Shown piece after piece: positions 1-28,700 of a DNA stretch of 64,000 nucleotides (the first letter of the stretch is position 1; each line of letters starts with the position of its first letter). This DNA is from Auanema rhodensis. Lineage: Eukaryota > Animalia > Nematoda. The stretch spans positions 620,001-684,000 of the forward strand of contig OZ059899.1 of assembly GCA_964057225.1 (NCBI GenBank). Reading direction: 5' to 3'. The notes beneath the pieces were generated by a model. The model worked only from the letters and a program-made list of their open reading frames with translations. It was not told the origin of the DNA and ran no database searches. Made by a program: the position numbers and the translations under genes.

Positions 1-880
1 GAAAACCGCATCTCTTTATCTTTCACGTGAAGCGAGTTACATACCAAGGGCACATCACGTGTACATTTAATTAGCATAAATTAAAGTTCACGTAAATTTC
101 AAAGTCATGGTTACCATGCACCAATATCAATAAAAATTTGTTTTTAGACTAATATGGACATGGGGAATCTAATTTTGAAAACCGCATCTCTTTATCTTTC
201 ACGTGAAGCGAGTTACATACCAAGTGCACATCACGTGTACATTTAATTAGCATAAATTAAAGTTCACGTGAATTTCAAAGTCATGGTTACCATGCACAAA
301 TATCAATAAAAATTTGTTTTTAGACTAATATGGACATGGGGAATCTAATTTTGAAAACCGCATCTCTTTATCTTTCACGTGAAGCGAGTTACATACCAAG
401 TGCACATCACGTGTACATTTAATTAGCATAAATTAAAGTTCACGTAAATTTCAAAGTCATGGTTACCATGCACCAATATCAATAAAAATTTGTTTTTAGA
501 CTAATATGGACATGGGGAATCTAATTTTGAAAACCGCATCTCTTTATCTTTCACGTGAAGCGAGTTACATACCAAGTGCACATCACGTGTACATTTAATT
601 AGCATAAATTAAAGTTCACGTAAATTTCAAAGTCATGGTTACCATGAACCAATATCAATAAAAATTTGTTTTTAGACTAATATGGACATGGGGAATCTAA
701 TTTTGAAAACCGCATCTCTTTATCGTTCACGTGAAGCGAGTTACATACCAAGTGCACATCACGTGTACATTTAATTAGCATAAATTAAAGTTCACGTAAA
801 TTTCAAAGTCATGGTTACCATGCACCAATATCAATAAAAATTTGTTTTTAGACTAATATGGACATGGGGAATCTAATTTT

Positions 881-972
881 GAAAACCGCATCTCTTTATC
901 TTTCACGTGAAGCGAGTTACATACCAAGTGCACATCACTTTAGACTAATATGGACATGGGGAATCTAATTTT
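881..972. repeat. Truncated 92-bp monomer (84-bp deletion of monomer positions 59-142)
   Basis: Junction CACATCAC|TTTAGACT at 938/939; monomer starts at 881 and 973. No microhomology or filler. Single copy. Confidence 0.95.
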
Positions 973-3900
973 GAAAACCGCATCTCTTTATCGTTCACGT
1001 GAAGCGAGTTACATACCAAGTGCACATCACGTGTACATTTAATTAGCATAAATTAAAGTTCACGTAAATTTCAAAGTCATGGTTACCATGCACCAATATC
1101 AATAAAAATTTGTTTTTAGACTAATATGGACATGGGGAATCTTATTTTGGAAACCGAATCTCTTTATCTTTCACGTGAAGCGAGTTACATACCAAGTGCA
1201 CATCACGTGTACATTTAATTAGCATAAATTGAAGTTCACGTAAATTTCAAAGTCATGGTTACCATGAACCAATATCAATAAAAATTTGTTTTTAGACTAA
1301 TATGGACATGGGGAATCTAATTTTGAAAACCGCATCTCTTTATCTTTCACGTGAAGCGAGTTACATACCAAGTGCACATCACGTGTACATTTAATTAGCA
1401 TAAATTAAAGTTCACGTAAATTTCAAAGTCATGGTTACCATGCACCAATATCAATAAAAAATTTTTTTTAGACTAATATGGACATGGGGAATCTAATTTT
1501 GAAAACCGCATCTCTTTATCTTTCACGTGAAGCGAGTTACATACCAAGTGCACATCACGTGTACATTTAATTAGCATAAATTAAAGTTCACGTAAATTTC
1601 AAAGTCATGGTTACCAAGCACCAATATCAATAAAAATTTGTTTTTAGACTAATATGGACATGGGGAATCTAATTTTGAAAACCGCATCTCTTTATCTTTC
1701 ACGTGAAGCGAGTTACATACCAAGGGCACATCACGTGTACATTTAATTAGCATAAATTAAAGCTCACGTAAATTTCAAAGTCATGGTTACCATGCACCAA
1801 TATCAATAAAAATTTGTTTTTAGACTAATATGGACATGGGGAATCTAATTTTGAAAACCGCATCTCTTTATCTTTCACGTGAAGCGAGTTACATACCAAG
1901 TGCACATCACGTGTACATTTAATTAGCATAAATTAAAGTTCACGTAAATTTCAAAGTCATGGTTACCATGAACCAATATCAATAAAAATTTGTTTTTAGA
2001 CTAATATGGACATGGGGAATCTAATTTTGAAAACCGCATCTCTTTATCTTTCACGTGAAGCGAGTTACATACCAAGGGCACATCACGTGTACATTTAATT
2101 AGCATAAATTAAAGTTCACGTAAATTTCAAAGTCATGGTTACCATGCACCAATATCAATAAAAATTTGTTTTTAGACTAATATGGACATGGGGAATCTAA
2201 TTTTGAAAACCGCATCTCTTTATCTTTCACGTGAAGCGAGTTACATACCAAGTGCACATCACGTGTACATTTAATTAGCATAAATTAAAGTTCACGTAAA
2301 TTTCAAAGTCATGGTTACCATGCACCAATATCAATAAAAATTTGTTTTTAGACTAATATGGACATGGGGAATCTAATTTTTAAAACCGCATCTCTTTATC
2401 TTTCACGTGAAGCGAGTTACATACCAAGGGCACATCACGTGTACATTTAATTAGCATAAATTAAAGTTCACGTAAATTTCAAAGTCATGGTTATCATGCA
2501 CCAATATCAATAAAAATTTGTTTTTAGACTAATATGGACATGGGGAATCTAATTTTGAAAACCGCATCTCTTTATCTTTCACGTGAAGCGAGTTACATAC
2601 CAAGGGCACATCACGTGTACATTTAATTAGCATAAATTAAAGTTCACGTAAATTTCAAAGTCATGGTTACCATGCACCAATATCAATAAAAATTTGTTTT
2701 TAGACTAATATGGACATGGGGAATCTAATTTTGAAAACCGCATCTCTTTATCTTTCACGTGAAGCGAGTTACATACCAAGTGCACATCACGTGTACATTT
2801 AATTAGCATAAATTAAAGTTCACGTAAATTTCAAAGTCATGGTTACCATGAACCAATATCAATAAAAATTTGTTTTTAGACTAATATGGACATGGGGAAT
2901 CTAATTTTGAAAACCGCATCTCTTTATCTCTCACGTGAAGCGAGTTACATACCAAGGGCACATCACGTGTACATTTAATTAGCATAAATTGAAGTTCACG
3001 TAAATTTCAAAGTCATGGTTACCATGAACCAATATCAATAAAAATTTGTTTTTAGACTAATATGGACATGGGGAATCTAATTTTGAAAACCGCATCTCTT
3101 TATCTTTCACGTGAAGCGAGTTACATACCAAGTGCACATCACGTGTACATTTAATTAGCATAAATTAAAGTTCACGTAAATTTCAAAGTCATGGTTACCA
3201 TGAACCAATATCAATAAAAATTTGTTTTTAGACTAATATGGAGATGGGGAATCTAATTTTGAAAACCGCATCTCTTTATCTTTCACGTGAAGCGAGTTAC
3301 ATACCAAGTGCACATCACGTGTACATTTAATTAGCATAAATTAAAGTTCACGTGAATTTCAAAGTCATGGTTACCATGCACAAATATCAATAAAAATTTG
3401 TTTTTAGACTAATATGGACATGGGGAATCTAATTTTGAAAACCGCATCTCTTTATCTTTCACGTGAAGCGAGTTACATACCAAGTGCACATCACGTGTAC
3501 ATTTAATTAGCATAAATTAAAGTTCACGTAAATTTCAAAGTCATGGTTACCATGAACCAATATCAATAAAAATTTGTTTTTAGACTAATATGGACATGGG
3601 TAATCTAATTTTGAAAACCGCATCTCTTTATCTTTCACGTGAAGCGAGTTACATACCAAGTGCACATCACGTGTACATTTAATTAGCATAAATTAAAGTT
3701 CACGTAAATTTCAAAGTCATGGTTACCATGAACCAATATCAATAAAAATTTGTTTTTAGACTAATATGGACATGGGGAATCTAATTTTGAAAACCGCATC
3801 TCTTTATCGTTCACGTGAAGCGAGTTACATACCAAGTGCACATCACGTGTACATTTAATTAGCATAAATTAAAGTTCACGTAAATTTCAAAGTCATGGTT

Positions 3901-6900
3901 ACCATGCACCAATATCAATAAAAATTTGTTTTTAGACTAATATGGACATGGGGAATCTAATTTTGGAAACCGCATCTCTTTATCTTTCACGTGAAGCGAG
4001 TTACATACCAAGTGCACATCACGTGTACATTTAATTAGCATAAATTGAAGTTCACGTAAATTTCAAAGTCATGGTTACCATGAACCAATATCAATAAAAA
4101 TTTGTTTTTAGACTAATATGGACATGGGGAATCTAATTTTGAAAACCGCATCTCTTTATCTTTCACGTGAAGCGAGTTACATACCAAGTGCACATCACGT
4201 GTACATTTAATTAGCATAAATTAAAGTTCACGTAAATTTCAAAGTCATGGTTACCATGCACCAATATCAATAAAAATTTTTTTTTAGACTAATATGGACA
4301 TGGGGAATCTAATTTTGAAAACCGCATCTCTTTATCTTTCACGTGAAGCGAGTTACATACCAAGTGCACATCACGTGTACATTTAATTAGCATAAATTAA
4401 AGTTCACGTAAATTTCAAAGTCATGGTTACCAAGCACCAATATCAATAAAAATTTGTTTTTAGACTAATATGGACATGGGGAATCTAATTTTGAAAACCG
4501 CATCTCTTTATCTTTCACGTGAAGCGAGTTACATACCAAGGGCACATCACGTGTACATTTAATTAGCATAAATTAAAGTTCACGTAAATTTCAAAGTCAT
4601 GGTTACCATGCACCAATATCAATAAAAATTTGTTTTTAGACTAATATGGACATGGGGAATCTAATTTTGAAAACCGCATCTCTTTATCTTTCACGTGAAG
4701 CGAGTTACATACCAAGTGCACACCACGTGTACATTTAATTAGCATAAATTAAAGTTCACGTAAATTTCAAAGTCATGGTTACCATGAACCAATATCAATA
4801 AAAATTTGTTTTTAGACTAATATGGACATGGGGAATCTAATTTTGAAAACCGCATCTCTTTATCGTTCACGTGAAGCGAGTCACATACCAAGTGCACATC
4901 ACGTGTACATTTAATTAGCATAAATTAAAGTTCACGTAAATTTCAAAGTCATGGTTACCATGAACCAATATCAATAAAAATTTGTTTTTAAACTAATATG
5001 GACATGGGGAATCTAATTTTGAAAACCGCATCTCTTTATCTTTCACGTGAAGCGAGTTACATACCAAGTGCACATCACGTGTACATTTAATTAGCATTAA
5101 TTGAAGTTCACGTAAATTTCAAAGTCATGGTTACCATGAACCAATATCAATAAAAATTTGTTTTTAGACTAATATGGACATGGGGAATCTAATTTTGAAA
5201 ACCGCATCTCTTTATCTTTCACGTGAAGCGAGTTACATACCAAGTGCACATCACGTGTACATTTAATTAGCATAAATTAAAGTTCACGTAAATTTCAAAG
5301 TCATGGTTACCATGAACCAATATCAATAAAAATTTGTTTTTAGACTAATATGGACATGGGGAATCTAATTTTGAAAACCGCATCTCTTTATCTTTCACGT
5401 GAAGCGAGTTACATACCAAGTGCACATCACGTGTACATTTAATTAGCATAAATTAAAGTTCACGTAAATTTCAAAGTCATGGTTACCATGAACCAATATC
5501 AATAAAAATTTGTTTTTAGACTAATATGGACATGGGGAATCTAATTTTGAAAACCGCATCTCTTTATCTTTCACGTGAAGCGAGTTACATACCAAGTGCA
5601 CATCACGTGTACATTTAATTAGCATAAATTGAAGTTCACGTAAATTTCAAAGTCATGGTTACCATGAACCAATATCAATAAAAATTTGTTTTTAGACTAA
5701 TATGGACATGGGGAATCTAATTTTGAAAACCGCATCTCTTTATCTTTCACGTGAAGCGAGTTACATACCAAGTGCACATCACGTGTACATTTAATTAGCA
5801 TAAATTAAAGTTCACGTAAATTTCAAAGTCATGGTTACCATGAACCAATATCAATAAAAATTTGTTTTTAGACTAATATGGACATGGGGAATCTAATTTT
5901 GAAAACCGCATCTCTTTATCTCTCACGTGAAGCGAGTTACATACCAAGGGCACGTCACGTGTACATTTAATTAGCATAAATTGAAGTTCACGTAAATTTC
6001 AAAGTCATGGTTACCATGAACCAATATCAATAAAAATTTGTTTTTAGACTAATATGGACATGGGGAATCTAATTTTGAAAACCGCATCTCTTTATCGTTC
6101 ACGTGAAGCGAGTTACATACCAAGTGCACATCACGTGTACATTTAATTAGCATAAATTAAAGTTCACGTAAATTTCAAAGTCATGGTTACCATGCACCAA
6201 TATCAATAAAAATTTGTTTTTAGACTAATATGGACATGGGGAATCTAATTTTGGAAACCGAATCTCTTTATCTTTCACGTGAAGCGAGTTACATACCAAG
6301 TGCACATCACGTGTACATTTAATTAGCATAAATTGAAGTTCACGTAAATTTCAAAGTCATGGTTACCATGAACCAATATCAATAAAAATTTGTTTTTAGA
6401 CTAATATGGACATGGGGAATCTAATTTTGAAAACCGCATCTCTTTATCTTTCACGTGAAGCGAGTTACATACCAAGTGCACATCACGTGTACATTTAATT
6501 AGCATAAATTAAAGTTCACGTAAATTTCAAAGTCATGGTTACCATGCACCAATATCAATAAAAATTTGTTTTTAGACTAATATGGACATGGGGAATCTAA
6601 TTTTGAAAACCGCATCTCTTTATTTTTCACGTTAAGCGAGTTACATACCAAGTGCACATCACGTGTACATTTAATTAGCATAAATTAAAGTTCACGTAAA
6701 TTTCAAAGTCATGGTTACCATGCACCAATATCAATAAAAATTTGTTTTTAGACTAATATGGACATGGGGAATCTAATTTTGAAAACCGCATCTCTTCATC
6801 TTTCACGTGAAGCGAGTTACATACCAAGTGCACATCACGTGTACATTTAATTAGCATAAATTAAAGTTCACGTAAATTTCAAAGTCATGGTTACCATGCA

Positions 6901-9900
6901 CCAATATCAATAAAAATTTGTTTTTAGACTAATATGGACATGGGGAATCTAATTTTGAAAACCGCATCTCTTTATCTTTCACGTGAAGCGAGTTACATAC
7001 CAAGTGCACATCACGTGTACATTTAATTAGCATAAATTAAAGTTCACGTAAATTTCAAAGTCATGGTTACCATGAACCAATATCAATAAAAATTTGTTTT
7101 TAGACTAATATGGACATGGGGAATCTAATTTTGAAAACCGCATCTCTTTATTTTTCACGTGAAGCGAGTTACATACCAAGTGCACATCACGTGTACATTT
7201 AATTAGCATAAATTAAAGTTCACGTAACTTTCAAAGTCATGGTTACCATGCACCAATATCAATAAAAATTTGTTTTTAGACTAATATGGACATGGGGAAT
7301 CTAATTTTGAAAACCGCATCTCTTTATCTTTCACGTGAAGCGAGTTACATACCAAGTGCACATCACGTGTACATTTAATTAGCATAAATTAAAGTTCACG
7401 TAAATTTCAAAGTCATGGTTACCATGAAGCAATATCAATAAAAATTTGTTCTGAGACTAATATGGACATGGGGAATCTAATTTTGAAAACCGCATCTCTT
7501 TATCTTTCACGTGAAGCGAGTTACATACCAAGTGCACATCACGTGTACATTTAATTAGCATAAATCAAAGTTCACGTAAATTTCAAAGTCATGGTTACCA
7601 TGAACCAATATCAATAAAAATTTGTTTTTAGACTAATATGGACATGGGGAATCTAATTTTGAAAACCGCATCTCTTTATCTTTCACGTGAAGCGAGTTAC
7701 ATACCAAGTGCACATCACGTGTACATTTAATTAGCATAAATTAAAGTTCACGTAAATTTCAAAGTCATGGTTACCATGAAGCAATATCAATAAAAATTTG
7801 TTTTTAGACTAATATGGACATGGGGAATCTAATTTTGAAAACCGCATCTCTTTATCTTTCACGTGAAGCGAGTTACATACCAAGTGCACATCACGTGTAC
7901 ATTTAATTAGCATTAATTAAAGTTCACGTAAATTTCAAAGTCATGGTTACCATGAACCAATATCAATAAAAATTTGTTTTTAGACTAATATGGACATGGG
8001 GAATCTAATTTTGAAAACCTCATCTCTTTATCTTTCACGTGAAGCGAGTTACATACCAAGTGCACATCACGTGTACATTTAATTAGCATAAATTAAAGTT
8101 CACGTAAATTTCAAAGTCATGGTTACCATGAACTAATATCAATAAAAATTTGTTTTTAGACTAATATGGACATGGGGAATCTAATTTTGAAAACCGCATC
8201 TCTTTATCTTTCACGTGAAGCGAGTTACATACCAAGTGCACATCACGTGTACATTTAATTAGCATAAATTAAAGTTCACGTAAATTTCAAAGTCATGGTT
8301 ACCATGAACCAATATCAATAAAAATTTGTTTTTAGACTAATATGGACATGGGGAATCTAATTTTGAAAACCGCATCTCTTTATCTTTCACGTGAAGCGAG
8401 TTACATACCAAGTGCACATCACGTGTACATTTAATTAGCATAAATTAAAGTTCACGTAAATTTCAAAGTCATGGTTACCATGAACCAATATCAATAAAAA
8501 TTTGTTTTTAGACTAATATGGACATGGGGAATCTAATTTTGAAAACCGCATCTCTTTATCTTTCACGTGAAGCGAGTTACATACCAAGTGCACATCACGT
8601 GTACATTTAATTAGCATAAATTAAAGTTCACGTAAATTTCAAAGTCATGGTTACCATGCACCAATATCAATAAAAATTTGTTTTTAGACTAATATGGACA
8701 TGGGGAATCTAATTTTGAAAACCGCATCTCTTTATCTTTCACGTGAAGCGAGTTACATACCAAGTGCACATCACGTGTACATTTAATTAGCATAAATTAA
8801 AGTTCACGTAAATTTCAAAGTCATGGTTACCATGAACCAATATCAATAAAAATTTGTTTTTAGACTAATATGGACATGGGGAATCTAATTTTGAAAACCG
8901 CATCTCTTGATCGTTCACGTGAAGCGAGTTACATACCAAGTGCACATCACGTGTACATTTAATTAGCATAAATTAAAGTTCACGTAAATTTCAAAGTCAT
9001 GGTTACCATGCACCAATATCAATAAAAATTTGTTTTTAGACTAATATGGACATGGGGAATCTAATTTTGGAAACCGAATCTCTTTATCTTTCACGTGAAG
9101 CGAGTTACATACCAAGAGCACATCACGTGTACATTTAATTAGCATAAATTGAAGTTCACGTAAATTTCAAAGTCATGGTTACCATGAACCAATATCAATA
9201 AAAATTTGTTTTTAGACTAATATGGACATGGGGAATCTAATTTTGAAAACCGCATCTCTTTATCTTTCACGTGAAGCGAGTTACATATCAAGTGCACATC
9301 ACGTGTACATTTAATTAGCATAAATTAAAGTTCACGTAAATTTCAAAGTCATGGTTACCATGCACCAATATCAATAAAAATTTGTTTTTAGACTAATATG
9401 GACATGGGGAATCTAATTTTGAAAACCGCATCTCTTTATCTTTCACGTGAAGCGAGTTACATACCAAGTGCACATCACGTGTACATTTAATTAGCATAAA
9501 TTAAAGTTCACGTAAATTTCAAAGTCATGGTTACCATGAACCAATATCAATAAAAATTTGTTTTTAGACTAATATGGACATGGGGAATCTAATTTTGAAA
9601 ACCGCATCTCTTTATTTTTCACGTGAAGCGAGTTACATACCAAGTGCACATCACGTGTACATTTAATTAGCATAAATTAAAGTTCACGTAACTTTCAAAG
9701 TCATGGTTACCATGCACCAATATCAATAAAAATTTGTTTTTAGACTAATATGGACATGGGGAATCTAATTTTGAAAACCGCATCTCTTTATCTTTCACGT
9801 GAAGCGAGTTACATACCAAGTGCACATCACGTGTACATTTAATTAGCATAAATTAAAGTTCACGTAAATTTCAAAGTCATGGTTACCATGCACCAATATC

Positions 9901-10713
9901 AATAAAAATTTGTTTTTAGACTAATATGGACATGGGGAATCTGATTTTGAAAACCGCATCTCTTTATCTTTCACGTGAAGCGAGTTACATACCAAGTGCA
10001 CATCACGTGTACATTTAATTAGCATAAATTAAAGTTCACGTAAATTTCAAAGTCATGGTTACCATGCACCAATATCAATAACAATTTGTTTTTAGACTAA
10101 TATGGACATGGGGAATCTAATTTTGAAAACCGCATCTCTTTATCTTTCACGTGAAGCGAGTTACATACCAAGTGCACATCACGTGTACATTTAATTAGCA
10201 TAAATTGAAGTTCACGTAAATTTCAAAGTCATGGTTACCATGAACCAATATCAATAAAAATTTGTTTTTAGACTAATATGGACATGGGGAATCTAATTTT
10301 GAAAACCGCATCTCTTTATCTTTCACGTGAAGCGAGTTACATACCAAGTACACATCACGTGTACATTTAATTAGCATAAATTAAAGTTCACGTAAATTTC
10401 AAAGTCATGGTTACCATGCACCAATATCAATAAAAATTTGTTTTTAGACTAATATGGACATGGGGAATCTAATTTTGAAAACCGCATCTCTTTATCTTTC
10501 ACGTGAAGCGAGTTACATACCAAGTGCACATCACGTGTACATTTAATTAGCATAAATTAAAGTTCACGTAAATTTCAAAGTCATGGTTACCATGAACCAA
10601 TATCAATAAAAATTTGTTTTTAGACTAATATGGACATGGGGAATCTAATTTTGAAAACCGCATCTCTTTATCTTTCACGTGAAGCGAGTTACATACCAAG
10701 TGCACATCACGTG

Positions 10714-10911
10714 AACCTTATAACCTGTGATTCGAACTTATAACCTGTGATTCGAACTATAACCTGTGATTCGAACCTATAACCTGTGATTCGAACGTAT
10801 AACCTGTGATTCGAACGTATAACCTGTGATTCGAACTTATAACCTGTGATTCGAACTTATAACCTGTGATTCGAACTTATAACCTGTGATTCGAACAATA
10901 AACCCGTTCAA
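10714..10911. other. 198-bp non-satellite insertion with apparent 5-bp target-site duplication (ACGTG at 10709-10713 and 10912-10916)
   Basis: The normal CATC-ACGTG-TACATTT reads CATC-ACGTG-[AACCTTATAACC...AATAAACCCGTTCAA]-ACGTG-TACATTT. Flanking monomer starts are 10653 and 11032 (379 = 176+198+5). Confidence 0.95.
10718..10896. repeat. Minisatellite inside the insertion: 9 units of (N)TATAACCTGTGATTCGAAC, 19-20 bp
   Basis: Units start at 10718, 10738, 10758 (19 bp), 10777, 10797, 10817, 10837, 10857 and 10877. The 19-nt core is identical in all nine. Confidence 0.97.
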
Positions 10912-13319
10912 ACGTGTACATTTAATTAGCATAAATTAAAGTTCACGTAAATTTCAAAGTCATGGTTACCATGCACCAATATCAATAAAAATTTGTTTTT
11001 AGACTAATATGGACATGGGGAATCTAATTTTGAAAACCGCATCTCTTCATCTTTCACGTGAAGCGAGTTACATACCAAGTGCACATCACGTGTACATTTA
11101 ATTAGCATAAATTAAAGTTCACGTAAATTCCAAAGTCATGGTTACCATGCACCAATATCAATAAAAATTTGTTTTTAGACTAATATGGACATGGGGAATC
11201 TAATTTTGAAAACCGCATCTCTTCATCTTTCACGTGAAGCGAGTTACATACCAAGTGCACATCACGTGTACATTTAATTAGCATAAATTAAAGTTCACGT
11301 AAATTTCAAAGTCATGGTTACCATGCACCAATATCAATAAAAATTTGTTTTTAGACTAATATGGACATGGGGAATCTAATTTTGAAAACCGCATCTCTTT
11401 ATCTTTCACGTGAAGCGAGTTACATACCAAGTGCACATCACGTGTACATTTAATTAGCATAAATTAAAGTTCACGTAAATTTCAAAGTCATGGTTACCAT
11501 GCACCAATATCAATAAAAATTTGTTTTTAGACTAATATGAACATGGGGAATCTAATTTTGAAAACCGCATCTCTTCATCTTTCACGTGAAGCGAGTTACA
11601 TACCAAGTGCACATCACGTGTACATTTAATTAGCATAAATTAAAGTTCACGTAAATTTCAAAGTCATGGTTACCATGCACCAATATCAATAAAAATTTGT
11701 TTTTAGACTAATATGGACATGGGGAATCTAATTTTGAAAACCGCATCTCTTTATCTTTCACGTGAAGCGAGTTACATACCAAGTGCACATCACGTGTACA
11801 TTTAATTAGCATAAATTAAAGTTCACGTAAATTTCAAAGTCATGGTTACCATGAACCAATATCAATAAAAATTTGTTTTTAGACTAATATGGACATGGGG
11901 AATCTAATTTTGAAAACCGCATCTCTTTATTTTTCACGTGAAGCGAGTTACATACCAAGTGCACATCACGTGTACATTTAATTAGCATAAATTGAAGTTC
12001 ACGTAACTTTCAAAGTCATGGTTACCATGCACCAATATCAATAAAAATTTGTTTTTAGACTAATATGGACATGGGGAATCTAATTTTGAAAACCGCATCT
12101 CTTTATCTTTCACGTGAAGCGAGTTACATACCAAGTGCACATCACGTGTACATTTAATTAGCATTAATTAAAGTTCACGTAAATTTCAAAGTCATGGTTA
12201 CCATGAACCAATATCAATAAAAATTTGTTTTTAGACTAATATGGACATGGGGAATCTGATTTTGAAAACCTCATCTCTTTATCTTTCACGTGAAGCGAGT
12301 TACATACCAAGTGCACATCACGTGTACATTTAATTAGCATAAATTAAAGTTCACGTAAATTTCAAAGTCATGGTTACCATGAACTAATATCAATAAAAAT
12401 TTGTTTTTAGACTAATATGGACATGGGGAATCTAATTTTGAAAACCGCATCTCTTTATCTTTCACGTGAAGCGAGTTACATACCAAGTGCACATCACGTG
12501 TACATTTAATTAGCATAAATTAAAGTTCACGTAAATTTCAAAGTCATGGTTACCATGAACCAATATCAATAAAAATTTGTTTTTAGACTAATATGGACAT
12601 GGGGAATCTAATTTTGAAAACCGCATCTCTTTATCTTTCACGTGAAGCGAGTTACATACCAAGTGCACATCACGTGTACATTTAATTAGCATAAATTAAA
12701 GTTCACGTAAATTTCAAAGTCATGGTTACCATGCACCAATATCAATAAAAATTTGTTTTTAGACTAATATGGACATGGGGAATCTAATTTTGAAAACCGC
12801 ATCTCTTTATCTTTCACGTGAAGCGAGTTACATACCAAGTGCACATCACGTGTACATTTAATTAGCATAAATTAAAGTTCACGTAAATTTCAAAGTCATG
12901 GTTACCATGCACCAATATCAATAAAAATTTGTTTTTAGACTAATATGGACATGGGGAATCTAATTTTGAAAACCGCATCTCTTTATCTTTCACGTGAAGC
13001 GAGTTACATACCAAGTGCACATCACGTGTACATTTAATTAGCATTAATTAAAGTTCACGTAAATTTCAAAGTCATGGTTACCATGAACCAATATCAATAA
13101 AAATTTGTTTTTAGACTAATATGGACATGGGGAATTTAATTTTGAAAACCTCATCTCTTTATCTTTCACGTGAAGCGAGTTACATACCAAGTGCACATCA
13201 CGTGTACATTTAATTAGCATAAATTAAAGTTCACGTAAATTTCAAAGTCATGATTACCATGAACTAATATCAATAAAAATTTGTTTTTAGACTAATATGG
13301 ACATGGGGAATCTAATTTT

Positions 13320-13469
13320 GAAAACCGCATCTCTTTATCTTAGCACATCACGTGTACATTTAATTAGCATAAATGAAAGTTCACGTAAATTTCAAAGTCA
13401 TGATTACCATGAACTAATATCAATAAAAATTTGTTTTTAGACTAATATGGACATGGGGAATCTAATTTT
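13320..13469. repeat. Truncated 150-bp monomer (net 26-bp deletion removing the TTCACGTGAA palindrome)
   Basis: TCTCTTTATCTT-A-GCACATCAC at 13330-13351; monomer starts are 13320 and 13470. It shares the rare TGATTACCATGAACTA variant with the preceding monomer. Confidence 0.93.
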
Positions 13470-16400
13470 GAAAACCGCATCTCTTTATCTTTCACGTGAA
13501 GCGAGTTACATACCAAGTGCACATCACGTGTACATTTAATTAGCATAAATTAAAGTTCACGTAAATTTCAAAGTCATGGTTACCATGAACCAATATCAAT
13601 AAAAATTTGTTTTTAGACTAATATGGACATGGGGAATCTAATTTTGAAAACCGCATCTCTTTATCTTTCACGTGAAGCGAGTTACATACCAAGTGCACAT
13701 CACGTGTACATTTAATTAGCATAAATTAAAGTTCACGTAAATTTCAAAGTCATGGTTATTATGAACCAATATCAATAAAAATTTGTTTTTAGACTAATAT
13801 GGACATGGGGAATCTAATTTTGAAAACCGCATCTCTTTATCATTCACGTGAAGCGAGTAACATACTAAGTGCACATCACGTGTACATTTAATTAGCATAA
13901 ATTAAAGTTCACGTAAATTTCAAAGTCATGGTTACCATGCACCAATATCAATAAAAATTTGTTTTTAGACTAATATGGACATGGGGAATCTAATTTTGAA
14001 AACCGCATCTCTTTATCTTTCACGTGAAGCGAGTTACATACCAAGTGCACATCACGTGTACATTTAATTAGCATAAATTAAAGTTCACGTAAATTTCAAA
14101 GTCATGGTTACCATGCACCAATATCAATAAAAATTTGTTTTTAGACTAATATGGACATGGGGAATCTAATTTTGAAAACCGCATCTCTTCATCTTTCACG
14201 TGAAGCGAGTTACATACCAAGTGCACATCACGTGTACATTTAATTAGCATAAATTAAAGTTCACGTAAATTTCAAAGTCATGGTTACCATGCACCAATAT
14301 CAATAAAAATTTGTTTTTAGACTAATATGGACATGGGGAATCTAATTTTGAAAACCGCATCTCTTTATCTTTCACGTGAAGCGAGTTACATACCAAGTGC
14401 ACATCACGTGTACATTTAATTAGCATAAATTAAAGTTCACGTAAATTTCAAAGTCATGGTTACCATGCACCAATATCAATAAAAATTTGTTTTTAGACTA
14501 ATATGGACATGGGGAATCTAATTTTGAAAACCGCATCTCTTTATCTTTCACGTGAAGCGAGTTACATACCAAGTGCACATCACGTGTACATTTAATTAGC
14601 ATAAATTAAAGTTCACGTAAATTTCAAAGTCATGGTTACCATGCACCAATATCAATAAAAATTTGTTTTTAGACTAATATGGACATGGGGAATCTAATTT
14701 TGAAAACCGCATCTCTTTATCTTTCACGTGAAGCGAGTTACATACCAAGTGCACATCACGTGTACATTTAATTAGCATAAATTAAAGTTCACGTAAATTT
14801 CAAAGTCATGGTTACCATGCACCAATATCAATAAAAATTTGTTTTTAGACTAATATGGACATGGGGAATCTAATTTTGAAAACCGCATCTCTTTATCTTT
14901 CACGTGAAGCGAGTTACATACCAAGTGCACATCACGTGTACATTTAATTAGCATTAATTAAAGTTCACGTAAATTTCAAAGTCATGGTTACCATGAACCA
15001 ATATCAATAAAAATTTGTTTTTAGACTAATATGGACATGGGGAATCTAATTTTGAAAACCTCATCTCTTTATCTTTCACGTGAAGCGAGTTACATACCAA
15101 GTGCACATCACGTGTACATTTAATTAGCATAAATTAAAGTTCACGTAAATTTCAAAGTCATGATTACCATGAACTAATATCAATAAAAATTTGTTTTTAG
15201 ACTAATATGGACATGGGGAATCTAATTTTGAAAACCGCATCTCTTTATCTTTCACGTGAAGCGAGTTACATACCAAGTGCACATCACGTGTACATTTAAT
15301 TAGCATAAATTAAAGTTCACGTAAATTTCAAAGTCATGGTTACCATGAACCAATATCAATAAAAATTTGTTTTTAGACTAATATGGACATGGGGAATCTA
15401 ATTTTGAAAACCGCATCTCTTTATCTTTCACGTGAAGCGAGTTACATACCAAGTGCACATCACGTGTACATTTAATTAGCATAAATTAAAGTTCACGTAA
15501 ATTTCAAAGTCATGGTTATTATGAACCAATATCAATAAAAATTTGTTTTTAGACTAATATGGACATGGGGAATCTAATTTTGAAAACCGCATCTCTTTAT
15601 CATTCACGTGAAGCGAGTAACATACTAAGTGCACATCACGTGTACATTTAATTAGCATAAATTAAAGTTCACGTAAATTTCAAAGTCATGGTTACCATGC
15701 ACCAATATCAATAAAAATTTGTTTTTAGACTAATATGGACATGGGGAATCTAATTTTGAAAACCGCATCTCTTTATCTTTCACGTGAAGCGAGTTACATA
15801 CCAAGTGCACATCACGTGTACATTTAATTAGCATAAATTAAAGTTCACGTAAATTTCAAAGTCATGGTTACCATGCACCAATATCAATAAAAATTTGTTT
15901 TTAGACTAATATGGACATGGGGAATCTAATTTTGAAAACCGCATCTCTTCATCTTTCACGTGAAGCGAGTTACATACCAAGTGCACATCACGTGTACATT
16001 TAATTAGCATAAATTAAAGTTCACGTAAATTTCAAAGTCATGGTTACCATGCACCAATATCAATAAAAATTTGTTTTTAGACTAATATGGACATGGGGAA
16101 TCTAATTTTGAAAACCGCATCTCTTTATCATTCACGTGAAGCGAGTAACATACTAAGTGCACATCACGTGTACATTTAATTAGCATAAATTAAAGTTCAC
16201 GTAAATTTCAAAGTCATGGTTACCATGCACCAATATCAATAAAAATTTGTTTTTAGACTAATATGGACATGGGGAATCTAATTTTGAAAACCGCATCTCT
16301 TTATCTTTCACGTGAAGCGAGTTACATACCAAGTGCACATCACGTGTACATTTAATTAGCATAAATTAAAGTTCACGTAAATTTCAAAGTCATGGTTACC

Positions 16401-17261
16401 ATGCACCAATATCAATAAAAATTTGTTTTTAGACTAATATGGACATGGGGAATCTAATTTTGAAAACCGCATCTCTTCATCTTTCACGTGAAGCGAGTTA
16501 CATACCAAGTGCACATCACGTGTACATTTAATTAGCATAAATTAAAGTTCACGTAAATTTCAAAGTCATGGTTACCATGCACCAATATCAATAAAAATTT
16601 GTTTTTAGACTAATATGGACATGGGGAATCTAATTTTGAAAACTGCATCTCTTCATCTTTCACGTGAAGCGAGTTACATACCAAGTGCACATCACGTGTA
16701 CATTTAATTAGCATAAATTAAAGTTCACGTAAATTTCAAAGTCATGGTTACCATGCACCAATATCAATAAAAATTTGTTTTTAGACTAATATGGACATGG
16801 GGAATCTAATTTTGAAAACCGCATCTCTTCATCTTTCACGTGAAGCGAGTTACATACCAAGTGCACATCACGTGTACATTTAATTAGCATAAATTAAAGT
16901 TCACGTAAATTTCAAAGTCATGGTTACCATGCACCAATATCAATAAAAATTTGTTTTTAGACTAATATGGACATGGGGAATCTAATTTTGAAAACCGCAT
17001 CTCTTTATCTTTCACGTGAAGCGAGTTACATACCAAGTGCACATCACGTGTACATTTAATTAGCATAAATTAAAGTTCACGTAAATTTCAAAGTCATGGT
17101 TACCATGAACCAATATCAATAAAAATTTGTTTTTAGACTAATATGGACATGGGGAATCTAATTTTGAAAACCGCATCTCTTTATTTTTCACGTGAAGCGA
17201 GTTACATACCAAGTGCACATCACGTGTACATTTAATTAGCATAAATTAAAGTTCACGTAAC

Positions 17262-20200
17262 TTTCAAAGTCATGGTTACCATGCACCAATATCAATAAAA
17301 ATTTGTTTTTAGACTAATATGGACATGGGGAATCTAATTTTGAAAACCGCATCTCTTTATCTTTCACGTGAAGCGAGTTACATACCAAGTGCACATCACG
17401 TGTACATTTAATTAGCATTAATTAAAGTTCACGTAAATTTCAAAGTCATGGTTACCATGAACCAATATCAATAAAAATTTGTTTTTAGACTAATATGGAC
17501 ATGGGGAATCTAATTTTGAAAACCTCATCTCTTTATCTTTCACGTGAAGCGAGTTACATACCAAGTGCACATCACGTGTACATTTAATTAGCATAAATTA
17601 AAGTTCACGTAAATTTCAAAGTCATGGTTACCATGAACTAATATCAATAAAAATTTGTTTTTAGACTAATATGGACATGGGGAATCTAATTTCGAAAACC
17701 GCATCTCTTTATCTTTCACGTGAAGCGAGTTACATACCAAGTGCACATCACGTGTACATTTAATTAGCATAAATTAAAGTTCACGTAAATTTCAAAGTCA
17801 TGGTTACCATGAACCAATATCAATAAAAATTTGTTTTTAGACTAATATGGACATGGGGAATCTAATTTTGAAAACCGCATCTCTTTATCTTTCACGTGAA
17901 GCGAGTTACATACCAAGTGCACATCACGTGTACATTTAATTAGCATAAATTAAAGTTCACGTAAATTTCAAAGTCATGGTTACCATGCACCAATATCAAT
18001 AAAAATTTGTTTTTAGACTAATATGGACATGGGGAATCTAATTTTGAAAACCGCATCTCTTTATCTTTCACGTGAAGCGAGTTACATACCAAGTGCACAT
18101 CACGTGTACATTTAATTAGCATAAATTAAAGTTCACGTAAATTTCAAAGTCATGGTTACCATGCACCAATATCAATAAAAATTTGTTTTTAGACTAATAT
18201 GGACATGGGGAATCTAATTTTGAAAACCGCATCTCTTTATCTTTCACGTGAAGCGAGTTACATACCAAGTGCACATCACGTGTACATTTAATTAGCATTA
18301 ATTAAAGTTCACGTAAATTTCAAAGTCATGGTTACCATGAACCAATATCAATAAAAATTTGTTTTTAGACTAATATGGACATGGGGAATCTAATTTTGAA
18401 AACCGCATCTCTTTATCTTTCACGTGAAGCGAGTTACATACCAAGTGCACATCACGTGTACATTTAATTAGCATAAATTAAAGTTCACGTAAATTTCAAA
18501 GTCATGGTTACCATGAACCAATATCAATGAAAATTTGTTTTTAGACTAATATGGACATGGGGAATCTAATTTTGAAAACCGCATCTCTTTATCTTTCACG
18601 TGAAGCGAGTTACATACCAAGTTCACATCACGTGTACATTTAATTAGCATAAATTAAAGTTCACGTAAATTTCAAAGTCATGGTTACCATGAACCAATAT
18701 CAATAAAAATTTGTTTTTAGACTAATATGGACATGGGGAATCTGATTTTGAAAACCGCATCTCTTTATCTTTCACGTGAAGCGAGTTACATACCAAGTGC
18801 ACATCACGTGTACATTTAATTAGCATAAATTAAAGTTCACGTAAAATTCAAAGTCATGGTTACCATGCACCAATATCAATAAAAATTTGTTTTTAGACTA
18901 ATATGGACATGGGGAATCTAATTTTGAAAACCGCATCTCTTTATCTTTTACGTGAAGCGAGTTACATACCAAGTGCACATCACGTGTACATTTTATTAGC
19001 ATAAATTAAAGTTCACGTAAATTTCAAAGTCATGGTTACCATGAACCAATATCAATAAAAATTTGTTTTTAGACTAATATGGACATGGGGAATCTAATTT
19101 TGAAAACCGCATCTCTTTATCTTTCACGTGAAGCGAGTTACATACCAAGTGCACATCACGTGTACATTTAATTAGCATAAATTAAAGTTCACGTAAAATT
19201 CAAAGTCATGGTTACCATGCACCAATATCAATAAAAATTTGTTTTTAGACTAATATGGACATGGGGAATCTAATTTGGAAAACCGCATCTCTTTATCTTT
19301 TACGTGAAGCGAGTTACATACCAAGTGCACATCACGTGTACATTTAATTAGCATAAATTAAAGTTCACGTAAATTTCAAAGTCATGGTTACCATGAACCA
19401 ATATCAATAAAAATTTGTTTTTAGACTAATATGGACATGGGGAATCTAATTTTGAAAACCGCATCTCTTTATCTTTCACGTGAAGCGAGTTACATACCAA
19501 GTGCACATCACGTGTACATTTAATTAGCATAAATTAAAGTTCACGTAAATTTCAAAGTCATGGTTACCATGAACCAATATCAATAAAAATTTGTTTTTAG
19601 ACTAATATGGACATGGGGAATCTAATTTTGAAAACCGCATCTCTTTATCTTTCACGTGAAGCGAGTTACATACCAAGTGCACATCACGTGTACACTTAAT
19701 TAGCATAAATTAAAGTTCACGTAAAATTCAAAGTCATGGTTACCATGCACCAATATCAATAAAAATTTGTTTTTAGACTAATATGGACATGGGGAATCTA
19801 ATTTTGAAAACCGCATCTCTTTATCTTTTACGTGAAGCGAGTTACATACCAAGTGCACATCACGTGTACATTTAATTAGCATAAATTAAAGTTCACGTAA
19901 ATTTCAAAGTCATGGTTACCATGAACCAATATCAATAAAAATTTGTTTTTAGACTAATATGGACATGGGGAATCTAATTTTGAAAACCGCATCTCTTTAT
20001 CTTTCACGTGAAGCGAGTTACATACCAAGTGCACATCACGTGTACATTTAATTAGCATAAATTAAAGTTCACGTAAATTTCAAAGTCATGGTTACCATGA
20101 ACAAATATCAATAAAAATTTGTTTTTAGACTAATATGGACATGGGGAATCTAATTTTGAAAACCGCATCTCTTTATCTTTCACGTGAAGCGAGTTACATA

Positions 20201-23200
20201 CCAAGTGCACATCACGTGTACATTTAATTAGCATAAATCAAAGTTCACGTAAATTTCAAAGTCATGGTTACCATGAACCAATATCAATAAAAATTTGTTT
20301 TTAGACTAATATGGACATGGGGAATCTAATTTTGAAAACCGCATCTCTTTATCTTTCACGTGAAGCGAGTTACATACCAAGTGCACATCACGTGTACATT
20401 TAATTAGCATAAATTAAAGTTCACGTAAAGTTCAAAGTCATGGTTACCATGCACCAATATCAATAAAAATTTGTTTTTAGACTAATATGGACATGGGGAA
20501 TCTAATTTTGAAAACCGCATCTCTTTATCTTTCACGTGAAGCGAGTTACATACCAAGTGCACATCACGTGTACATTTAATTAGCATAAATTAAAGTTCAC
20601 GTAAATTTCAAAGTCATGGTTACCATGAACCAATATCAATAAAAATTTGTTTTTAGACTAATATGGACATGGGGAATCTAATTTTGAAAACCGCATCTCT
20701 TTATCTTTCACGTGAAGCGAGTTACATACCAAGTGCACATCACGTGTACATTTAATTAGCATAAATTAAAGTTCACGTAAATTTCAAAGTCATGGTTACC
20801 ATGAACCAATATCAATAAAAATTTGTTTTTAGACTAATATGGACATGGGGAATCTAATTTTGAAAACCGCATCTCTTTATCTTTCACGTGAAGCGAGTTA
20901 CATACCAAGTGCACATCACGTGTACATTTAATTAGCATAAATTAAAGTTCACGTAAATTTCAAAGTCATGGTTACCATGAACCAATATCAATAAAAATTT
21001 GTTTTTAGACTAATATGGACATGGGGAATCTAATTTTGAAAACCGCATCTCTTTATCTTTCACGTGAAGCGAGTTACATACCAAGTGCACATCACGTGTA
21101 CATTTAATTAGCATAAATTAAAGTTCACGTAAATTTCAAAGTCATGGTTACCATGCACCAATATCAATAAAAATTTGTTTTTAGACTAATATGGACATGG
21201 GGAATCTAATTTTGAAAACCGCATCTCTTTATCTTTCACGTGAAGCGAGTTACATACCAAGTGCACATCACGTGTACATTTAATTAGCATAAATTAAAGT
21301 TCACGTAAATTTCAAAGTCATGGTTACCATGCACCAATATCAATAAAAATTTGTTTTTAGACTAATATGGACATGGGGAATCTAATTTTGAAAACCGCAT
21401 CTCTTTATCTTTCACGTGAAGCGAGTTACATACCAAGTGCACATCACGTGTACATTTAATTAGCATTAATTAAAGTTCACGTAAATTTCAAAGTCATGGT
21501 TACCATGAACCAATATCAATAAAAATTTGTTTTTAGACTAATATGGACATGGGGAATCTAATTTTGAAAACCTCATCTCTTTATCTTTCACGTGAAGCGA
21601 GTTACATACCAAGTGCACATCACGTGTACATTTAATTAGCATAAATTAAAGTTCACGTAAATTTCAAAGTCATGGTTACCATGAACTAATATCAATAAAA
21701 ATTTGTTTTTAGACTAATATGGACATGGGGAATCTAATTTTGAAAACCGCATCTCTTTATCTTTCACGTGAAGCGAGTTACATACCAAGTGCACATCACG
21801 TGTACATTTAATTAGCATAAATTAAAGTTCACGTAAATTTCAAAGTCATGGTTACCATGAACCAATATCAATAAAAATTTGTTTTTAGACTAATATGGAC
21901 ATGGGGAATCTAATTTTGAAAACCGCATCTCTTTATCTTTCACGTGAAGCGAGTTACATACCAAGTGCACATCACGTGTACATTTAATTAGCATAAATTA
22001 AAGTTCACGTAAATTTCAAAGTCATGGTTACCATGCACCAATATCAATAAAAATTTGTTTTTAGACTAATATGGACATGGGGAATCTAATTTTGAAAACC
22101 GCATCTCTTTATCTTTCACGTGAAGCGAGTTACATACCAAGTGCACATCACGTGTACATTTAATTAGCATAAATTAAAGTTCACGTAAATTTCAAAGTCA
22201 TGGTTACCATGCACCAATATCAATAAAAATTTGTTTTTAGACTAATATGGACATGGGGAATCTAATTTTGAAAACCGCATCTCTTTATCTTTCACGTGAA
22301 GCGAGTTACATACCAAGTGCACATCACGTGTACATTTAATTAGCATTAATTAAAGTTCACGTAAATTTCAAAGTCATGGTTACCATGAACCAATATCAAT
22401 AAAAATTTGTTTTTAGACTAATATGGACATGGGGAATCTAATTTTGAAAACCGCATCTCTTTATCTTTCACGTGAAGCGAGTTACATACCAAGTGCACAT
22501 CACGTGTACATTTAATTAGCATAAATTAAAGTTCACGTAAATTTCAAAGTCATGGTTACCATGAACCAATATCAATGAAAATTTGTTTTTAGACTAATAT
22601 GGACATGGGGAATCTAATTTTGAAAACCGCATCTCTTTATCTTTCACGTGAAGCGAGTTACATACCAAGTGCACATCACGTGTACATTTAATTAGCATAA
22701 ATTAAAGTTCACGTAAATTTCAAAGTCATGGTTACCATGAACCAATATCAATAAAAATTTGTTTTTAGACTAATATGGACATGGGGAATCTGATTTTGAA
22801 AACCGCATCTCTTTATCTTTCACGTGAAGCGAGTTACATACCAAGTGCACATCACGTGTACATTTAATTAGCATAAATTAAAGTTCACGTAAAATTCAAA
22901 GTCATGGTTACCATGCACCAATATCAATAAAAATTTGTTTTTAGACTAATATGGACATGGGGAATCTAATTTTGAAAACCGCATCTCTTTATCTTTTACG
23001 TGAAGCGAGTTACATACCAAGTGCACATCACGTGTACATTTTATTAGCATAAATTAAAGTTCACGTAAATTTCAAAGTCATGGTTACCATGAACCAATAT
23101 CAATAAAAATTTGTTTTTAGACTAATATGGACATGGGGAATCTAATTTTGAAAACCGCATCTCTTTATCTTTCACGTGAAGCGAGTTACATACCAAGTGC

Positions 23201-25357
23201 ACATCACGTGTACATTTAATTAGCATAAATTAAAGTTCACGTAAAATTCAAAGTCATGGTTACCATGCACCAATATCAATAAAAATTTGTTTTTAGACTA
23301 ATATGGACATGGGGAATCTAATTTGGAAAACCGCATCTCTTTATCTTTTACGTGAAGCGAGTTACATACCAAGTGCACATCACGTGTACATTTAATTAGC
23401 ATAAATTAAAGTTCACGTAAATTTCAAAGTCATGGTTACCATGAACCAATATCAATAAAAATTTGTTTTTAGACTAATATGGACATGGGGAATCTAATTT
23501 TGAAAACCGCATCTCTTTATCTTTCACGTGAAGCGAGTTACATACCAAGTGCACATCACGTGTACATTTAATTAGCATAAATTAAAGTTCACGTAAATTT
23601 CAAAGTCATGGTTACCATGAACCAATATCAATAAAAATTTGTTTTTAGACTAATATGGACATGGGGAATCTAATTTTGAAAACCGCATCTCTTTATCTTT
23701 CACGTGAAGCGAGTTACATACCAAGTGCACATCACGTGTACACTTAATTAGCATAAATTAAAGTTCACGTAAAATTCAAAGTCATGGTTACCATGCACCA
23801 ATATCAATAAAAATTTGTTTTTAGACTAATATGGACATGGGGAATCTAATTTTGAAAACCGCATCTCTTTATCTTTTACGTGAAGCGAGTTACATACCAA
23901 GTGCACATCACGTGTACATTTAATTAGCATAAATTAAAGTTCACGTAAATTTCAAAGTCATGGTTACCATGAACCAATATCAATAAAAATTTGTTTTTAG
24001 ACTAATATGGACATGGGGAATCTAATTTTGAAAACCGCATCTCTTTATCTTTCACGTGAAGCGAGTTACATACCAAGTGCACATCACGTGTACATTTAAT
24101 TAGCATAAATTAAAGTTCACGTAAATTTCAAAGTCATGGTTACCATGAACAAATATCAATAAAAATTTGTTTTTAGACTAATATGGACATGGGGAATCTA
24201 ATTTTGAAAACCGCATCTCTTTATCTTTCACGTGAAGCGAGTTACATACCAAGTGCACATCACGTGTACATTTAATTAGCATAAATCAAAGTTCACGTAA
24301 ATTTCAAAGTCATGGTTACCATGAACCAATATCAATAAAAATTTGTTTTTAGACTAATATGGACATGGGGAATCTAATTTTGAAAACCGCATCTCTTTAT
24401 CTTTCACGTGAAGCGAGTTACATACCAAGTGCACATCACGTGTACATTTAATTAGCATAAATTAAAGTTCACGTAAAGTTCAAAGTCATGGTTACCATGC
24501 ACCAATATCAATAAAAATTTGTTTTTAGACTAATATGGACATGGGGAATCTAATTTTGAAAACCGCATCTCTTTATCTTTCACGTGAAGCGAGTTACATA
24601 CCAAGTGCACATCACGTGTACATTTAATTAGCATAAATTAAAGTTCACGTAAATTTCAAAGTCATGGTTACCATGAACCAATATCAATAAAAATTTGTTT
24701 TTAGACTAATATGGACATGGGGAATCTAATTTTGAAAACCGCATCTCTTTATCTTTCACGTGAAGCGAGTTACATACCAAGTGCACATCACGTGTACATT
24801 TAATTAGCATAAATTAAAGTTCACGTAAATTTCAAAGTCATGGTTACCATGAACCAATATCAATAAAAATTTGTTTTTAGACTAATATGGACATGGGGAA
24901 TCTAATTTTGAAAACCGCATCTCTTTATCTTTCACGTGAAGCGAGTTACATACCAAGTGCACATCACGTGTACATTTAATTAGCATAAATTAAAGTTCAC
25001 GTAAATTTCAAAGTCATGGTTACCATGAACCAATATCAATAAAAATTTGTTTTTAGACTAATATGGACATGGGGAATCTAATTTTGAAAACCGCATCTCT
25101 TTATCTTTCACGTGAAGCGAGTTACATACCAAGTGCACATCACGTGTACATTTAATTAGCATAAATTAAAGTTCACGTAAATTTCAAAGTCATGGTTACC
25201 ATGCACCAATATCAATAAAAATTTGTTTTTAGACTAATATGGACATGGGGAATCTAATTTTGAAAACCGCATCTCTTTATCTTTCACGTGAAGCGAGTTA
25301 CATACCAAGTGCACATCACGTGTACATTTAATTAGCATAAATTAAAGTTCACGTAAA
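17262..25357. repeat. Tandem duplication of a 23-monomer (4048-bp) block; boundaries approximate
   Basis: Rare variants recur at offset 4048: 17525/21573, 18529/22577, 19277/23325, 20430/24478. Confidence 0.88.
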
Positions 25358-25764
25358 TTTCAAAGTCATGGTTACCATGAACCAATATCAATAAAAATTT
25401 GTTTTTAGACTAATATGGACATGGGGAATCTAATTTTGAAAACCGCATCTCTTTATCTTTCACGTGAAGCGAGTTACATACCAAGTGCACATCACGTGTA
25501 CATTTAATTAGCATAAATTAAAGTTCACGTAAATTTCAAAGTCATGGTTACCATGAACCAATATCAATAAAAATTTGTTTTTAGACTAATATGGACATGG
25601 GGAATCTAATTTTGAAAACCGCATCTCTTTATCTTTCACGTGAAGCGAGTTACATACCAAGTGCACATCACGTGTACATTTAATTAGCATAAATTAAAGT
25701 TCACGTAAATTTCAAAGTCATGGTTACCATGCACCAATATCAATAAAAATTTGTTTTTAGACTA

Positions 25765-28700
25765 CTTTTGACTGTTTTTAGACCCATCACGTGTACATTT
25801 AATTAGCATAAATTAAAGTTCACGTAAATTTCAAAGTCATGGTTACCATGAACCAATATCAATAAAAATTTGTTTTTAGACTAATATGGACATGGGGAAT
25901 CTAATTTTGAAAACCGCATCTCTTTATCTTTCACGTGAAGCGAGTTACATACCAAGTGCACATCACGTGTACATTTAATTAGCATAAATTAAAGTTCACG
26001 TAAATTTCAAAGTCATGGTTACCATGAACCAATATCAATAAAAATTTGTTTTTAGACTAATATGGACATGGGGAATCTAATTTTGAAAACCGCATCTCTT
26101 TATCTTTCACGTGAAGCGAGTTACATACCAAGTGCACATCACGTGTACATTTAATTAGCATAAATTAAAGTTCACGTAAATTTCAAAGTCATGGTTACCA
26201 TGAACCAATATCAATAAAAATTTGTTTTTAGACTAATATGGACATGGGGAATCTAATTTTGAAAACCGCATCTCTTTATCTTTCACGTGAAGCGAGTTAC
26301 ATACCAAGTGCACATCACGTGTACATTTAATTAGCATAAATTAAAGTTCACGTAAATTTCAAAGTCATGGTTACCATGAACCAATATCAATAAAAATTTG
26401 TTTTTAGACTAATATGGACATGGGGAATCTAATTTTGAAAACCGCATCTCTTTATCTTTCACGTGAAGCGAGTTACATACCAAGTGCACATCACGTGTAC
26501 ATTTAATTAGCATAAATTAAAGTTCACGTAAATTTCAAAGTCATGGTTACCATGAACCAATATCAATAAAAATTTGTTTTTAGACTAATATGGACATGGG
26601 GAATCTAATTTTGAAAACCGCATCTCTTTATCTTTCACGTGAAGCGAGTTACATACCAAGTGCACATCACGTGTACATTTAATTAGCATAAATTAAAGTT
26701 CACGTAAATTTCAAAGTCATGGTTACCATGCACCAATATCAATAAAAATTTGTTTTTAGACTACTTTTGACTGTTTTTAGACCCATCACGTGTACATTTA
26801 ATTAGCATAAATTAAAGTTCACGTAAATTTCAAAGTCATGGTTACCATGAACCAATATCAATAAAAATTTGTTTTTAGACTAATATGGACATGGGGAATC
26901 TAATTTTGAAAACCGCATCTCTTTATCTTTCACGTGAAGCGAGTTACATACCAAGTGCACATCACGTGTACATTTAATTAGCATAAATTAAAGTTCACGT
27001 AAATTTCAAAGTCATGGTTACCATGAACCAATATCAATAAAAATTTGTTTTTAGACTAATATGGACATGGGGAATCTAATTTTGAAAACCGCATCTCTTT
27101 ATCTTTCACGTGAAGCGAGTTACATACCAAGTGCACATCACGTGTACATTTAATTAGCATAAATTAAAGTTCACGTAAATTTCAAAGTCATGGTTACCAT
27201 GAACCAATATCAATAAAAATTTGTTTTTAGACTAATATGGACATGGGGAATCTAATTTTGAAAACCGCATCTCTTTATCTTTCACGTGAAGCGAGTTACA
27301 TACCAAGTGCACATCACGTGTACATTTAATTAGCATAAATTAAAGTTCACGTAAATTTCAAAGTCATGGTTACCATGAACCAATATCAATAAAAATTTGT
27401 TTTTAGACTAATATGGACATGGGGAATCTAATTTTGAAAACCGCATTTCTTTATCTTTCACGTGAAGCGAGTTACATACCAAGTGCACATCACGTGTACA
27501 TTTAATTAGCATAAATTAAAGTTCACGTAAATTTCAAAGTCATGGTTACCATGCACCAATATCAATAAAAATTTGTTTTTAGACTAATATGGACATGGGG
27601 AATCTAATTTTGAAAACCGCATCTCTTTATCTTTCACGTGAAGCGAGTTACATACCAAGTGCACATCACGTGTACATTTAATTAGCATAAATTAAAGTTC
27701 ACGTAAATTTCAAAGTCATGGTTACCATGAACCAATATCAATAAAAATTTGTTTTTAGACTAATATGGACATGGGGAATCTAATTTTGAAAACCGCATCT
27801 CTTTATCTTTCACGTGAAGCGAGTTACATACCAAGTGCACATCACGTGTACATTTAATTAGCATAAATTAAAGTTCACGTAAATTTCAAAGTCATGGTTA
27901 CCATGAACCAATATCAATAAAAATTTGTTTTTAGACTAATATGGACATGGGGAATCTAATTTTGAAAACCGCATCTCTTTATCTTTCACGTGAAGCGAGT
28001 TACATACCAAGTGCACATCACGTGTACATTTAATTAGCATAAATTAAAGTTCACGTAAATTTCAAAGTCATGGTTACCATGCACCAATATCAATAAAAAT
28101 TTGTTTTTAGACTACTTTTGACTGTTTTTAGACCCATCACGTGTACATTTAATTAGCATAAATTAAAGTTCACGTAAATTTCAAAGTCATGGTTACCATG
28201 AACCAATATCAATAAAAATTTGTTTTTAGACTAATATGGACATGGGGAATCTAATTTTGAAAACCGCATCTCTTTATCTTTCACGTGAAGCGAGTTACAT
28301 ACCAAGGGCACATCACGTGTACATTTAATTAGCATAAATTAAAGTTCACGTAAATTTCAAAGTCATGGTTACCATGAACCAATATCAATAAAAATTTGTT
28401 TTCAGACTAATATGGACATGGGGAATCTAATTATGAAAACCGCATCTCTTTATCTTTCACGTGAAGCGAGTTACATACCAAGTGCACATCACGTGTACAT
28501 TTAATTAGCATAAATCAAAGTTCACGTAAATTTCAAAGTCATGGTTACCATGAACCAATATCAATAAAAATTTGTTTTTAGACTAATATGGACATGGGGA
28601 ATCTAATTTTGAAAACCGCATCTTTTTATCTTTCACGTGAAGCGAGTTACATACCAAGTGCACATCACGTGTACATTTAATTAGCATAAATTAAAGTTCA

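Follow-up and report, generated by a model that had tools for sequence, protein, structure and literature searches.

The 64,000-nucleotide stretch of DNA analysed here (the window) contains an insert in which a 19-nt core is repeated nine times and joined by a variable linker. The array is real, inherited and statistically odd, and it is best read as the likely stuttered 3' end of a retroelement that probably targets the surrounding satellite. If this is true, the insert would be a natural and inherited record of how the polymerase of a retroelement went back to a single short template many times, leaving untemplated junctions. Such behavior is mostly seen in vitro, and it would provide a concrete route for the birth of a minisatellite. 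The insert would also point to an element family, apparently undescribed, whose endonuclease cuts one satellite site, and such a site-specific endonuclease could account for the other rearrangement breakpoints that cluster nearby.

The insert and its host satellite

The monomer survey showed that the window is an AT-rich satellite array, with 348 empty copies of the target site. The plain monomers (n = 315) had a mean divergence of 0.7% from their consensus in the 64-kb window. One interrupted monomer was 379 bp instead of the usual 176 bp, and the 203-bp excess is made up of a 198-bp insert and an exact 5-bp target-site duplication that flanks it. The insert consists of a 5-nt filler, the nine-core array and a 15-nt unique tail. 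The features are as follows.

1..64000, + strand: host satellite array, AT-rich, 176-bp monomer (monomer survey of the whole window)
10709..10713, + strand: target-site duplication, left copy, 5 bp (monomer columns 125-129)
10714..10911, + strand: the insert, 198 bp
10714..10718, + strand: left (5') junction filler, 5 nt (from the sequence)
10719..10896, + strand: array of nine perfect 19-nt cores (linkers T, none, C, G, G, T, T, T)
10880..10896, + strand: parent-like segment, 17 nt of the last core (array-free occurrence, shown in run X2 and deduced in run X3)
10897..10911, + strand: unique tail, 15 nt, containing a poly(A)-signal hexamer and two terminal A
10912..10916, + strand: target-site duplication, right copy, 5 bp (monomer alignment)

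A preliminary description of this DNA had limited the feature to 10714..10896. The array that it reported is present, but the feature is larger, and the tail and the duplication had been missed.

The 15-nt tail is likely the 3' terminus of an element. It carries the poly(A)-signal hexamer but has just 2-3 A at its end, and a real poly(A) tail is absent. For the 5-nt filler, two readings fit: a piece from inside the core whose synthesis was aborted, or the last bases of a tenth unit followed by a 2-nt linker. No termini of the LTR or DNA-transposon type were found, as the insert has no TG start or CA end and its inverted match length is 0. The predicted 4-bp hairpin formed by the core end and the tail was not beyond shuffled sequences (z -0.54; 37/200 as good). 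Between the tail and the core there is a weak likeness (12 identities; p 0.038 relative to shuffled sequences). This likeness recalls the alignment region of a telomerase-type template, although plain realignment there would not be expected to yield the observed linkers.

All of the other structural breaks in the window (3/3), namely those at 938 and 13341 and a 119-bp variant (10 copies, from 25764 to 51827), break on one side at column 126, 118 or 121 of the monomer. The clustering of these breakpoints within 7 bp of the insertion site gave p 0.003-0.006, with the size of this interval chosen post hoc. It fits recurrent cutting at the insertion site and suggests a cut or break hotspot. The 119-bp variant has been amplified to its 10 copies with irregular spacing, which indicates a young higher-order structure. 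Another local higher-order repeat was seen at 58768-64000, where the monomers share variants in a recurring order in units of about three monomers. A satellite 26-mer had no match in metagenome contigs or prokaryote genome contigs, and literature matches to the core words and to satellite 13-mers were only unrelated, PCR-primer-like sequences.

The 119-bp deletion variant (25722-51903) carries a 20-nt filler composed of two imperfect copies of its own left flank. This filler looks like a product of Pol theta, so iterative repair by the host is also active in the satellite. It raises the possibility that the array itself was made by DNA-templated repair, in which Pol theta or strand invasion copied the 3' junction of an element in a sister monomer and was repeatedly re-primed, with no reverse transcriptase involved. 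Donor junctions at the same satellite site do exist in public contigs, and passages of PMC4912351 report that Pol theta combines templated with untemplated synthesis and re-uses templates in trans. However, the local filler is short and imprecise, as against nine exact cores of equal length, and the exact 5-bp duplication fits an endonuclease cut. The flanks of the break also do not match as a source of the insert: the core has no word longer than 6 nt in common with the flanking satellite, and 6 nt is likewise the longest word that the core and tail share with the rest of the window. Copying in trans could nonetheless supply the template. On this balance we regard DNA-templated repair as an unlikely origin of the array.

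Variation within the array

The nine 19-nt cores reported previously were confirmed with zero mismatches at 10719-10896, where chance would give a mean of 0.06 copies (100 shuffles). There were no further copies of the core in the 64-kb window with up to 3 mismatches allowed. TRF run on the array gave a period of 20 with 9.1 copies. The cores showed 0 changes in 171 bases, while the linker column had four states across the eight inter-copy linkers. The variable linkers noted previously are thus real, but the states number four and not five, as the "CT" counted among them belongs to the 5-nt left junction.

When T is taken as the ancestral linker, at least three events (a deletion, C and G) are needed. 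The probability of three random events all landing in a single one of 20 columns is about 0.0026, and that of their landing in the column right after the parent-like segment is about 2.5e-4. The first value carries modest weight, since this window was one chosen out of many; the boundary behind the second value comes from independent data. The lack of core changes is by itself unremarkable (p 0.29 at the background divergence). The earlier claim that the variation is confined to one junction position holds, and it gains weight at the parent-like edge. The variation is restricted to the base that immediately follows the parent-like segment, which favors multiple re-priming events with errors at the junction over plain slippage.

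The alternative that these values bear on is an ordinary 3' UTR minisatellite of one element subfamily, which would have grown by slippage with a mutable junction base, the copy in the window being truncated inside an older array. The G,G and T,T,T runs do resemble slippage, and a partial unit of 4 nt is one way of reading the left junction. Yet changes spread along the unit, as expected of a slippage minisatellite, were not found; three or more changes would have to fall in a single column, one that borders the parent-like segment.

The array in public contigs from other samples

Array words were present, at half or more of the 26 sampled words, in 9/19 listed runs, which belong to 3 studies and carry 3 organism labels. 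The preliminary description had proposed searching genome and read data for the core, and the public runs contain the array in other samples and under other organism labels. No RNA data set was among the runs listed with these words, which carries no information about expression. The other 10/19 runs contained 0.27-0.31 of the words, which is the share given by the satellite only (8.2 of 26), and they are left out of the evidence. The best run had 20/26 words and none had all; this best run may be the source sample. The core had no match in metagenome contigs or viral contigs.

Contigs were compared for runs X1, X2, X3 and X6 (4/19 runs) at the right end of the insert only. The cores and the tail were covered by contigs in 4/4 of these runs (3 studies), with linker C found in X1 and X3 and linker G in X2 and X3. 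As linkers C and G recur in other samples, they are real and inherited and are not read errors of this assembly. In favor of an artefact of assembly or sequencing are the incomplete word count of the best run and the fact that no one listed contig covers the entire compared stretch. Against such an artefact, linkers C and G, the cores and the junction of tail and satellite were recovered in 4/4 examined runs (3 studies), and the two copies of the 5-bp duplication match exactly. We consider it extremely improbable.

A 17-nt part of the core followed by the tail and the satellite was found with zero differences in 3/4 examined runs (X2, X3 and X6), in junction contigs whose satellite stretch is only 26-28 nt and thus under the 31-letter bridge threshold. 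In the X2 junction contig (depth 1595), 10 non-array letters precede position 10880, and the first two bases of the core differ from this parent-like contig. The X3 junction contig is 315 nt long and has at least 255 further letters, whose upstream position we infer. In a second X3 contig, a diverged part-core and tail meet the satellite at 10910, with at least 255 loose letters. The readable sequence upstream is 10 nt in the X2 parent-like contig and 30 nt in the X3 sister contig. These contigs indicate that this satellite base is where a longer sequence terminates, and that the longer sequence exists in two or more versions. The sister version rests on one contig in one run, and the shared 3' junction may reflect the amplification of one insertion. 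It had been suggested that the array could be the work of an undescribed, free-standing repeat-writing system; this idea is not sustained, as 17/19 core bases and the tail occur array-free as the 3' end of the longer sequence.

The array-to-tail depth ratios in the four runs were 1.1, 5.7, 6.5 and 0.25, on the rough measure of summed contig depth. On the same measure, which gives no copy number, the array depth was 4e-5 to 4e-4 of the satellite peak. The binned depth of X1, as we interpret the bins, rises from 55 for the C linker to about 215 for the array-to-tail contig, which hints at several array-bearing junctions. Several such junctions, together with the wide occurrence of array words across the listed runs, would agree with the 3' UTR minisatellite. 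Against it, the single tail contig listed in X2 and in X3 is not linked to an array, although a gap between contigs proves nothing. Weighing this with the placement of the linker changes, we find the slippage-grown minisatellite possible but unlikely.

Depth also bears on whether a telomerase, or another dedicated short-template reverse transcriptase, wrote its own repeat into a break. Telomerases are known to make errors at the template boundary, for example in fission yeast, and a constant core with a variable boundary base resembles such errors. The core also includes a 5-nt rotation of the arthropod telomere motif, a length of match that is at chance level. The unit does not, however, look like an abundant chromosome-end repeat: at 0.25-6.5 times the depth of the tail junction, the array is far too shallow for chromosome-end tracts, as far as this rough depth measure goes. 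Moreover, the unit is the end of a longer sequence that has a diverged sister at the same site. Rfam gave no match at E<=1 for 10400-11200, and there was no relevant literature match for the core motif. We therefore hold this origin to be very unlikely.

A proposed origin of the array

We propose that the insert arose by target-primed insertion of a non-LTR element, which we consider probable in view of the short duplication, the fixed 3' end with a poly(A) signal, the extreme 5' truncation and the site shared with other contigs. That the insert is a severely 5'-truncated non-LTR retroelement (a LINE or its SINE) whose cores were made by re-priming on one 19-nt segment is the fuller reading, to which we give about an even chance. 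No ORF for a reverse transcriptase or endonuclease was seen in the 10-30 readable letters upstream, and a clade assignment would need an ORF. The element likely favors one site of the 176-bp satellite. The earlier view of a reverse transcriptase acting at a break is plausible from these hallmarks of target-primed reverse transcription, without the separate 19-nt template that it had assumed.

According to this proposal, the endonuclease of the element would cut the two strands around the 5-bp site in a staggered manner. Target-primed reverse transcription would copy the tail of 15 nt and then a further stretch of about 19 nt of the 3' UTR, the minus strand being the first cDNA strand. Synthesis would then stall, and the nascent end would re-engage the same segment up to eight more times; 0-2 untemplated or mis-primed bases would be gained per restart. 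Some copies within the G,G and T,T,T runs could have been added later by slippage. The end of the array would finally be joined to the left target arm.

The reiteration could have taken place on either strand, and the polymerase could be the reverse transcriptase of the element or Pol theta. In a first-strand version, the reverse transcriptase would run off a fixed 5' end and re-engage right before the tail. If it was instead the second strand that was reiterated, the left target arm would jump repeatedly onto the free end of a short cDNA. Either way, one boundary would be a physical end and the other an internal stop that lacks an explanation; the hairpin predicted at this stop is the one that did not exceed shuffled sequences. 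The added T and G would match the 5' junctions formed by R2Bm in vitro, as described in passages of PMC13000458, which fits the second-strand version. The difference between the first two bases of the core and the X2 parent would favor the copying of a cDNA, but the depth steps of X6 may allow for a matching parent allele. The preference for untemplated A on the minus strand that had been suggested is not established, as the donor may have templated the T linker and a model on the plus strand fits equally.

The array insertion is known from a single 5' junction. Shared junctions can arise from one insertion that was copied by host recombination, as indicated in part of bioRxiv 10.64898/2026.09.17.752431. 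Such copying would weaken the case for targeting, whereas the sister end and the cluster of breakpoints argue in the opposite direction.

A stronger form of the proposal is that the reverse transcriptase of a satellite-targeting element adds repeats from a bounded 19-nt segment of its 3' UTR in the manner of a telomerase, and does so recurrently at satellite cuts. We regard this as doubtful, indeed quite unlikely. If it is true, the insert would represent a natural intermediate between target-primed reverse transcription and telomerase, writing new tandem arrays into satellite DNA. Should the array instead be no more than a minisatellite of a 3' UTR or a scar left by Pol theta, it would be a curiosity.

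Comparison with known elements and polymerases

The Cp1 SINE of Chironomus is reportedly a short element inserted site-specifically into centromeric tandem repeats, in which it would resemble this insert. A search for a reiterated internal 3' UTR segment (19 nt, nine times) with variable junctions gave no match in the literature covered, which lacks most subscription papers. The papers cited below were compared through selected passages.

Satellite preference has been documented for Tx1 and YURE families (PMC4494074, figure legend; PMC4640811). The Tx1 clade (Keno, Kibi, Koshi, Tx1-Mar and satellite-targeting families) and the Utopia/NeSL/YURE group have a fixed 3' junction at one base of a multicopy repeat, a short target-site duplication and related families at one site, according to the parts of PMC4494074 and PMC4640811 that were compared, and this insert appears to share these features. 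The reiterated internal 3' UTR segment of this insert is not described for either group in those passages. An R2 family targeting an oyster satellite was considered as a further case and dropped, as it was not borne out by the compared part of PMC5035012.

Pol theta-mediated end joining also produces templated patches and untemplated bases at a break (passages of PMC4912351). It differs from this insert, whose template lies outside the flanks, whose copies are perfect and uniform in length, and whose target site is duplicated instead of deleted.

Tandem repeats at the 3' terminus of LINEs and SINEs, such as TAA in the I factor and TGTAA in UnaL2, have been ascribed to template slippage by the reverse transcriptase in passages of PMC3747384. 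The compared part of PMC3812793 also deals with LINE 3' repeats, slippage and the birth of microsatellites. The units of the I factor and UnaL2 are 3-5 nt and terminal, whereas the present unit measures 19-20 nt, is separated from the end by 15 nt and varies at its junction base.

The formation of the array would be comparable, by analogy, to R2-type jumping with untemplated addition. Passages of PMC8857657 report that the R2 reverse transcriptase adds untemplated bases and jumps between templates, best with a 1-2 nt overhang. The 5' junctions of R2 carry untemplated G and T while its 3' junctions are precise (PMC13000458, in part), and an endonuclease-dead R2 makes head-to-tail tandem copies of its template in cells (PMC11371274, in part). 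The tandem insertions made by the R2 reverse transcriptase and in PRINT likewise show 0-2 extra bases per restart and head-to-tail copies. Nine rounds with an identical start and stop are not described for R2 or Pol theta in the passages compared. R2 jumps between whole templates or onto target DNA, with 28S rDNA as its target, whereas in this insert an internal 19-nt segment with fixed ends would have been re-used nine times within a satellite.
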